Sequence record: OR846573.1
Length of the DNA stretch: 1,005 bases
From: a phage
Strand: one strand, 5' to 3'
In this document: positions 787-1,005 of the stretch, in pieces
Numbering within the stretch: the stretch's first letter is position 1
Layout: each line of letters opens with the position of its first letter
Translations under genes and position numbers: made by a program
Notes under the pieces: generated by a model
The model's input: the letters and a program-made list of their open reading frames with translations, nothing else
The model's database searches: none
What the model was told of the DNA's origin: nothing

Positions 787-1005
787 TGATGCCCGCTCTG
801 CAAAAACTCCCTTTTTCTGGCTTGCCTTTTTCCGGCATTTGCGGATATAGTTTTTCCGCTGCCGCAAAATCGGCAGCCGGGCGTGAGAACCCGAGTATGT
901 TATCGGCGACATATGACGCGCCATGCGTCTTTTTTTGTGTCGCAATCAACGCCACAGAGCGCCAGATTATGGTGTGGCGTGTGGTTTGCCGTGCAGGTAT
1001 GATCC
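783..1005 (+). CDS. Possible 3'-truncated ORF of unknown function, start overlapping the upstream stop (ATGA); alternative internal start at 897
   Basis: Seen in sequence: three in-frame ATGs at 783-791; the first overlaps the TGA of the upstream gene. The frame stays open for 74 codons to the window edge (about 3 percent chance in random sequence), but two minus-strand frames are also open here, so stop-poor composition may explain it. The translation (MMMPALQKLPFSGLPFSGICGYSFSAAAKSAAGRENPSMLSATYDAPCVFFCVAINATERQIMVWRVVCRAGMI...) is Cys-rich and not recognisable to me. A hairpin plus T-run lies inside it (915-936). Confidence 0.25.
   Translation, partial: MMMPALQKLPFSGLPFSGICGYSFSAAAKSAAGRENPSMLSATYDAPCVFFCVAINATERQIMVWRVVCRAGMI
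822..851 (+). promoter_or_regulatory. Possible sigma70 promoter: -35 TTGCCT (822-827), 18-bp spacer, -10 TATAGT (846-851)
   Basis: Seen in sequence: 4/6 and 5/6 matches to the consensus hexamers with an acceptable spacer. Position immediately downstream of the regulator gene would fit an early promoter of a P4-like left operon, but this is by eye only. Confidence 0.25.
858..877. promoter_or_regulatory. Perfect 7-bp inverted repeat GCTGCCG-caaaat-CGGCAGC; candidate operator or 5' RNA stem-loop
   Basis: Seen in sequence: GCTGCCG (858-864) and its reverse complement CGGCAGC (871-877) around a 6-nt loop. It lies just downstream of the putative -10 at 846-851, i.e. at the predicted transcript start. 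No T-run follows on either strand, so it is not an intrinsic terminator. Confidence 0.3.
915..936 (+). terminator. Candidate weak intrinsic terminator or attenuator: GACGC-gccat-GCGTC hairpin followed by seven T
   Basis: Seen in sequence: 5-bp GC-rich stem (915-919 / 925-929), 5-nt loop, then TTTTTTT at 930-936. Strand-specific: the minus-strand transcript would have the A-run before the hairpin. The stem is short, so termination is likely partial or regulated. Confidence 0.3.

Follow-up and report, generated by a model that had tools for sequence, protein, structure and literature searches.

The best-described relative of the element considered here is the immunity leader of the satellite phage P4, whose components are arranged in the order PLE - seqA - t1 - cI - seqC - kil/eta. 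Within this leader, t1 is said to be a typical Rho-independent terminator located between PLE and cI. Efficient termination at t1 reportedly requires both the CI RNA and seqA, also in vitro, and deletion of t1 is said to raise the level of CI RNA. The kil gene (65 aa) reportedly forms the end of a longer open reading frame (ORF), eta, of 197-199 aa with three candidate starts. This longer frame is said to begin upstream of PLE and to be translated only from PLL transcripts, which reportedly read through.

A second relative is IsrK, encoded by the Gifsy-1 prophage of Salmonella, an Hfq-binding sRNA of ~77 nt that ends at a Rho-independent terminator and from which a subset of transcripts read through to produce a long mRNA (PMC4825925). 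The seqA RNA of P4 is described as a structural homologue of IsrK, the CI RNA arises by processing of the primary transcript and, through pairing with seqA and seqC, brings about termination, and a C4-like RNA, STnc1160, has been suggested to modulate termination at the IsrK terminator (PMC4825925). IsrK has likewise been equated with seqA, and C4 with CI, in a TraDIS study in which IsrK-like elements of P4-like prophages were found to be required in S. Typhi (PMC3632133). An Rfam-based annotation also lists isrK (2 copies) and C4 in Escherichia coli O157:H7 EDL933 (PMC5331693).

A third group comprises the immI region of P1/P7 and the corresponding regions of N15/phiKO2, with the order a1b1 - c4 - a2b2 - icd - ant. 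In common with the P4-type arrangement, these phages employ a C4-type antisense RNA processed from its own transcript, targets that flank the C4 RNA, and a downstream target that overlaps the ribosome-binding site (RBS) of an Icd-like ORF. The genes controlled downstream differ, being antirepressors in P1, N15 and phiKO2 and epsilon and the alpha primase-helicase in P4-type elements.

The DNA analysed here (referred to as the window) is a stretch of 1,005 nucleotides from the phage sequence record OR846573.1. A hairpin followed by a run of seven T residues, at 915-936 on its + strand, very probably constitutes a Rho-independent terminator of a P4-type immunity leader at the t1 position, and also the 3′ end of an IsrK-like RNA of ~78 nt. 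The hairpin is a homologue of P4 t1 and part of the group of C4 antisense immunity systems found in P1/P7, N15/phiKO2 and P4.

Many E. coli O157:H7 chromosomes contain the window with 100% identity, and among 5426 complete E. coli genomes it is found in 1059. Satellite phage P4 is 95% identical to this region with the gene order kept. The window takes in ori and PLL, vis (P4 ORF88; 520-786), the start of eta (from 783) and the PLE promoter (-10 box at 846-851), and the P4 records place the ori repeats, vis and the -10 box at the aligned positions. The same -10 hexamer is labelled ‘consensus -10 sequence’ in P4 record X02534 (L002 1037-1042; offset 191), and the promoter sequence is identical in P4. 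At 130-245, repeated CTGTTCACC / GGTGAACAG units correspond to the type-1 repeats of P4 ori. Unlike P4 itself, the element here is a chromosomal prophage of E. coli O157:H7. In strain FRIK944 the window lies inside a P4-type satellite prophage adjoining a tRNA-Leu gene, the first part of which encodes, in order, an integrase, an HTH protein, a type II restriction endonuclease, a cytosine methyltransferase, psu, delta and a 244-aa ORF that occupies the position of sid. The other strand carries an AlpA-type regulator, an ‘Icd-like’ CDS, the derepression (epsilon) protein, a 151-aa ORF, a DUF5375 protein and the primase-helicase. The restriction endonuclease and methyltransferase are a further difference from P4 and sit between int and psu, which is the P4 cargo hotspot; just outside the element are a phosphorothioated-DNA restriction endonuclease and a type II Zorya gene, zorE (regions noted for these observations, L001 3367-5774 and 14960-17005). 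Coordinates preceded by L001 refer to the 17-kb locus, which extends beyond the window and in which window position 783 is 8783.

The features of the window that are used below, all on the + strand, are as follows.

520-786, + strand: vis (P4 ORF88), an AlpA-family excisionase/regulator (Pfam Phage_AlpA, 74 bits; P4 annotation ‘excisionase and transcriptional regulator’).
783-1005, + strand: N-terminal part of the eta ORF, with three tandem ATGs (783-791), continuing to L001 9373 (196 aa; RefSeq CDS WP_000980224.1).
822-851, + strand: PLE-type sigma-70 promoter from the promoter scan, with -35 TTGCCT (822-827), an 18-nt spacer and -10 TATAGT (846-851).
858-877, + strand: leader hairpin 1, GCUGCCG-CAAAAU-CGGCAGC, the first helix of Rfam isrK and c4-a1b1.
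878-893, + strand: leader hairpin 2, CGGG-CGUGAGAA-CCCG, from the Rfam isrK and c4-a1b1 alignments.
883-889, + strand: site b1, GUGAGAA, in the loop of hairpin 2, complementary to UUCUCAC of the CI/C4 RNA (L001 9093-9099).
899-906, + strand: site a1, the core of P4 ‘seqA’, GUUAUCGG, single-stranded and complementary to the CI RNA loop CCGAUAAC (L001 9078-9085).
906-943, + strand: outer helix, GCGACA (906-911) with UGUCGC (938-943), in the minimum free energy (MFE) fold of 855-945.
915-929, + strand: terminator stem-loop, GACGC(G)-(C)CA(U)-(U)GCGUC, from the terminator scan, RNAfold, the last helix of the isrK model and changes on both sides at 6/6 pairs.
930-936, + strand: U7 tract of the intrinsic terminator and predicted 3′ end of the leader, ~78-79 nt from 858 (sequence, scan and isrK match).

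On the + strand the terminator sequence reads GACGCG-CCA-TGCGTC (915-929), followed by T7 (930-936) and GTGTCGC. The terminator scan picks out this site on its own, with a loop of 3 and 6 pairs, of which 4 are G-C and one is G-T, whilst RNAfold favours five base pairs around a 5-nt loop, with an energy of -7.4 kcal/mol (z = -3.2; matched by 0 of 200 shuffles). The P4 hairpin and T7 are the same except at position 924, where T in the window is C in P4, so that the stem that closes with G-U here closes with G-C there and becomes a perfect 6-bp helix of -8.6 kcal/mol. Transcription likely starts at or near 858, ~7 nt past the -10 box. An earlier sequence-only reading of this DNA had delimited a hairpin and T7 at 915-936 exactly as they are described here, in the 5-bp, 5-nt form that RNAfold prefers. 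Its description of a weak stem in the form of an intrinsic terminator agrees with the calculated energy and with the G+C stem of 5-6 bp and U7 found by the scan; it had also placed the hairpin inside an open frame, which proves to be the annotated CDS running from 783 to L001 9373, and about 75 nt from the predicted start, the measured distance from the likely start to the end of the hairpin being 78-79 nt. Several other candidates were discarded. A ‘terminator-like’ site on the minus strand (220-191) consists of two ori repeats in inverted orientation and is not a terminator, a bidirectional terminator at 915-936 was rejected because the minus strand past the hairpin reads ATATGT, without a T-run, and minus-strand ORFs at 637-945 and 731-955 found no support.

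The position of a terminator inside an annotated CDS requires some comment. RefSeq describes the 196-aa product as ‘Icd-like’, but the Icd-like domain covers only residues 143-190, which coincide with a nested 65-aa ORF starting at L001 9176. This ORF matches the Icd-like model NF033153 with 76 bits and is assigned, by position and size, as P4 kil. Residues 22-143 of the CDS match Pfam Phage_ASH, a stretch in which conservation is largely at the RNA level, and eta would be three codons longer in P4 (a 9-column alignment gap). The RefSeq annotation is therefore corrected here, since a promoter, leader RNA, terminator and antisense RNA gene all lie within the 196-aa CDS. With its three tandem ATGs, 196-aa ORF and nested 65-aa kil, the window agrees with the eta/kil layout reported for P4. 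The terminator and the ORF do not conflict, given that eta is said to be translated only from the upstream PLL.

The same arrangement bears on whether the hairpin could instead be the terminator of vis, ending a PLL-vis transcript 129 nt past the vis stop codon. No other terminator-like site on the + strand stands closer behind vis, but a promoter and a conserved structured leader intervene between the two, and relatives with entirely different upstream genes keep the unit of leader, terminator and C4. Furthermore, the eta ORF starts within the end of vis, overlapping its stop codon, and continues through the hairpin; translation of PLL transcripts would thus be expected to cross it, and these transcripts reportedly read through. 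A vis terminator is thus regarded as highly improbable.

Assignment of the hairpin to an immunity leader is based on matches to three Rfam families. The isrK family (RF01394) matches 858-935 over model positions 1-77 of 77 with 71.2 bits against a cut-off of 50 (E 5e-15), and the last helix and UUUUUU tail of the model align to 914-935, that is, to the hairpin and T-run. The c4-a1b1 family (RF03163) matches 845-897 with 50.8 bits against a cut-off of 46.7. The C4 antisense RNA family (RF01695) matches outside the window, at L001 9034-9121, ~100 nt past the T-run, with 74.2 bits against 45. In P4, isrK (60.8 bits) and C4 both match at the corresponding positions. In phiKO2, the depositors annotated a ‘putative terminator’ on the homologous hairpin, which lies between the isrK and C4 matches and is followed by icd and antA/antB. 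The isrK alignment, the P4 matches and the phiKO2 trio together identify the hairpin as the terminator of an IsrK-like leader.

The locus nevertheless stands in different relations to the described systems. Its score exceeds the isrK gathering threshold over the full model and it has the 3′ Rho-independent terminator of the family, and it shares with Gifsy-1 IsrK two 5′ hairpins (the first with a CAAAAU loop), a spacer and a total length of ~77 nt; some Gifsy-1 transcripts read through into the C4-like STnc1160 RNA and downstream genes, and the corresponding elements are found here. However, the Gifsy-1-type context of a lambdoid prophage, with antQ upstream and orf45-anrP-isrJ downstream, is absent, its place being taken by vis upstream and eta/kil, epsilon and alpha downstream. 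Gifsy-1 IsrK also differs in its demonstrated role, which is trans-activation of translation and not immunity. The leader is consequently a structural member of isrK and not a Gifsy-1 orthologue, as its context is that of a P4 satellite. It also has the defining parts of a C4 system (clan CL00128), namely a two-hairpin a1/b1 motif with a same-strand C4 RNA downstream and a second target copy that overlaps the RBS of an icd-like gene, kil. As in the description of t1, the hairpin lies between the PLE -10 box and the CI RNA, has a Rho-independent structure and is preceded by a CI-complementary seqA target. On account of its position and of the reported properties of t1, we take 915-936 to be, very probably, P4 terminator t1.

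Hfq-binding 3′ ends usually take the form of a hairpin with a U7 tail, and the short RNA would carry both of the CI-complementary sites. Instead of marking an attenuator, the hairpin might mainly serve to produce a stable, trans-acting, Hfq-bound RNA of ~78 nt, which would titrate CI RNA via a1/b1 or, in the manner of Gifsy-1 IsrK, expose an RBS farther downstream by pairing with the read-through RNA. The match to the IsrK family points the same way, as the Salmonella member acts in trans on its own read-through mRNA (PMC4825925), and so does the requirement for IsrK-like sequences in S. Typhi noted above (PMC3632133). Against this, the locus belongs to a P4 satellite in which kil, epsilon and alpha follow, unlike the orf45-anrP and antQ surroundings of Gifsy-1. 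We consider a mainly trans-acting product possible but doubtful; it is in any case compatible with, and not exclusive of, attenuation at the same hairpin.

The sequences by which CI RNA would recognize the leader can be identified directly. The 8-mer GTTATCGG occurs at exactly three places in the 17-kb locus: as a1 (899-906), as its complement in the CI loop, and as a2. The a2 (‘seqC’) copy, at L001 9158-9165, overlaps GGAGG, the Shine-Dalgarno sequence of kil, which stands 8 nt ahead of the kil ATG at L001 9176. In the CI/C4 RNA the complement of a1 occupies a 12-nt loop, and the complement of b1 lies just past that hairpin. In P4 the 8-mer at the three equivalent places is TTCACAGG (L003 1090-1097, 1278-1285, 1357-1364). 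Such a three-way compensatory swap provides direct evidence, from sequence, for genuine RNA-RNA contacts. Because the 8-mer has been exchanged at seqA, the CI loop and seqC while the rest of the region is 95% identical, the prophage is probably heteroimmune to P4, with its specificity predicted to reside in GTTATCGG versus TTCACAGG. The complementarity design of seqA, seqB and seqC is otherwise that of P4.

A comparison across genomes was made by scanning the pattern GCAAAATC-N5-CCGGG-N6-10-CCCG in one genome per species (596 Gb), which returned 120 loci. The pattern is too loose, over half of these loci being chance hits, and those in which stem 1 is unpaired served as a negative control. A terminator-like site was found within 110 nt downstream at 40/56 loci with hairpin 1 paired, compared with 1/64 of those with it unpaired. 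The true hits come from Erwinia, Kluyvera, Brenneria, Kosakonia, Phytobacter, Enterobacter, Aeromonas, Pseudomonas, Xanthomonas, Salinicola and others. A covariance model (CM) constructed from 28 true hits gave 40 full-length matches, in whose alignment all six terminator pairs are changed on both sides and 76-86% of cells are paired; this CM-guided alignment is fitted to the model structure and leans towards it. It replaced a MAFFT alignment in which some terminators were mis-registered (71-75% of cells paired). One terminator pair is G-C in 17 sequences and C-G in 13, and another is A-U in 18, C-G in 11 and G-C in 4. No shuffle reached the covariation score of the terminator, and sliding of the 3′ partners as a control reduced pairing from 86% to 35-45%. 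All 40 aligned full-length relatives have a T-run of at least 5 at the equivalent place. Hairpin 1, a helix partly used for selection, has 98.6% of cells paired and changes on both sides at 5/7 pairs in the same 40 relatives.

These data bear on whether the hairpin and T-run might have arisen by chance in coding sequence and have no function. As a bare pattern they are not exceptional, since the scan finds 2 terminator-like sites in the window compared with 1.3 +/- 1.3 in shuffles, and the stem is short. What raises the hairpin above chance is the full-length isrK match, its conservation in P4 and phiKO2 and the compensatory changes in diverse genomes; together with the difference between paired and control loci, these comparative data already contradict a chance origin, which is scarcely credible.

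The terminator is common in the family and not universal, as about six relatives have no obvious one: no obvious hairpin and T-run was seen within 110 nt at L027, L039, L048, L050, L079 and L101, despite the presence of hairpins 1 and 2, and several of these loci still have a C4-like RNA downstream. Whole-leader RNAduplex predictions against the downstream RNA were over-extended, hence only the recurring a and b segments were used, and the a-site was re-derived by an ungapped exact search. The b-site complementarity recurs in the duplexes of relatives, and 31 relatives possess an exact, locus-specific 7-9-mer just upstream of the terminator that is complementary to the downstream C4-like RNA, so that the juxtaposition of a-site and terminator is a family trait; in the window the terminator stem begins nine bases past a1. 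An exact a-site match of at least 7 nt was absent in eight loci by the same ungapped search. Second, weaker copies of the leader motif are found at L026 2186-2279, L036 2757-2865 and L085 7396-7482, some with an altered loop 1 (CCAAUUC, CCAAAAUG), and may represent tandem or neighbouring elements or additional target sites.

The outer helix encloses the terminator and its U-tract and can therefore form only in read-through RNA. Its inner pairs covary among the relatives, one pair being G-C in 18 and A-U in 12, with 66% of cells paired overall, and counterparts of different sequence occur in Brenneria (CGGUAUA/UAUACCG) and Aeromonas (GCGCAC/GUGCGC). Two further roles can be envisaged, both rather unlikely in our estimation: the ~78-nt leader may be a stable Hfq-binding trans RNA, acting either on the read-through transcript, as in Gifsy-1, or as a CI sponge setting the threshold of immunity, and, separately, the outer helix 906-911/938-943 may be a read-through-specific structure with its own role, such as processing or the hiding of a1.

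Returning to the t1 attenuator as the preferred explanation, the structure, position, family match, complementarities with their compensatory swap, and conservation with covariation are shown by the data described above; for termination itself, its dependence on CI, the processing of CI and the effect of ribosomes, we infer or adopt from the literature the following course of events. Constitutive transcription from PLE would begin near 858, and the nascent RNA would fold into two hairpins presenting b1 (883-889) and the adjacent a1 (899-906). A fraction of polymerases would stop at the G+C stem and U7, releasing the short RNA, whilst the remainder would read through into the CI (C4-type) RNA ~100 nt downstream, which would then be cut out of the transcript. 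CI RNA would pair with two targets, b1/a1 in newly made leaders and the b2/a2 copy that covers the kil ribosome-binding site. This pairing would raise termination at t1, resulting in negative autoregulation of CI, and would switch off translation of kil as well as the downstream replication genes, thereby establishing immunity. Transcripts from PLL, in contrast, would be translated through eta, and ribosomes crossing 915-936 would block formation of the hairpin there.

How CI pairing might promote termination was addressed in silico. In one model, an upstream hairpin competes with the terminator, and binding of CI at a1 releases the latter. Blocking of a1 in the window changed the predicted probability of the terminator from 0.87 to 0.84, and the same fold test in P4 from 0.89 to 0.97. 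This anti-terminator model was rejected for the window, where blocking had no effect in silico and the competing-hairpin mechanism is not supported; it does not work in the fold predictions for P4 either. Relatives of the Pseudomonas/Xanthomonas type differ, as they possess an X-X′-X leader, e.g. GGCGC-ACAG-GCGCC...GGCGC-U7, in which a-site blocking raises the predicted terminator probability from 0.06-0.58 to at least 0.93. Leaders of this kind occur at L007, L016, L021, L026, L060, L071, L078, L093 and L123 (Pseudomonas, Xanthomonas, Chromohalobacter, Dyella and others) and also at L033, L038 and L043; over all of them the change is from 0.01-0.58 to at least 0.88. In these leaders the upstream hairpin shares one arm with the terminator, and the C4-complementary site overlaps or abuts its 5′ arm. 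In the fold predictions, the X-X′-X arrangement looks like an antisense-RNA-triggered terminator switch that is absent from the P4-type leader.

The sequence-only reading had drawn an analogy to P4 immunity and had suggested a promoter-proximal point of attenuation or, alternatively, the end of a plus-strand RNA of 70-80 nt. The locus is more than analogous, being part of a P4-type prophage 95% identical to P4 in which the hairpin lies between the PLE -10 box and the CI/C4 RNA, and both suggestions appear essentially right in view of the end-to-end isrK match at 858-935 and the homology to P4. Covariation across homologous elements, which it had put forward as a check, is positive, with changes on both sides at every stem pair, and the stem is kept in P4, phiKO2 and diverse relatives. 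The feature is already known, given that it has been described in phage P4 and that Rfam isrK already covers the 3′ end of IsrK-like RNAs, and carries little weight as a discovery, the element being a textbook part of P4 immunity; its value is that of a sanity check, in which an RNA-controlled attenuator was correctly recognized from raw sequence. Of wider relevance, the module of leader, terminator and C4 RNA is widespread in Gammaproteobacteria with locus-specific recognition sequences, which has some bearing on the prediction of heteroimmunity among P4-like satellites.
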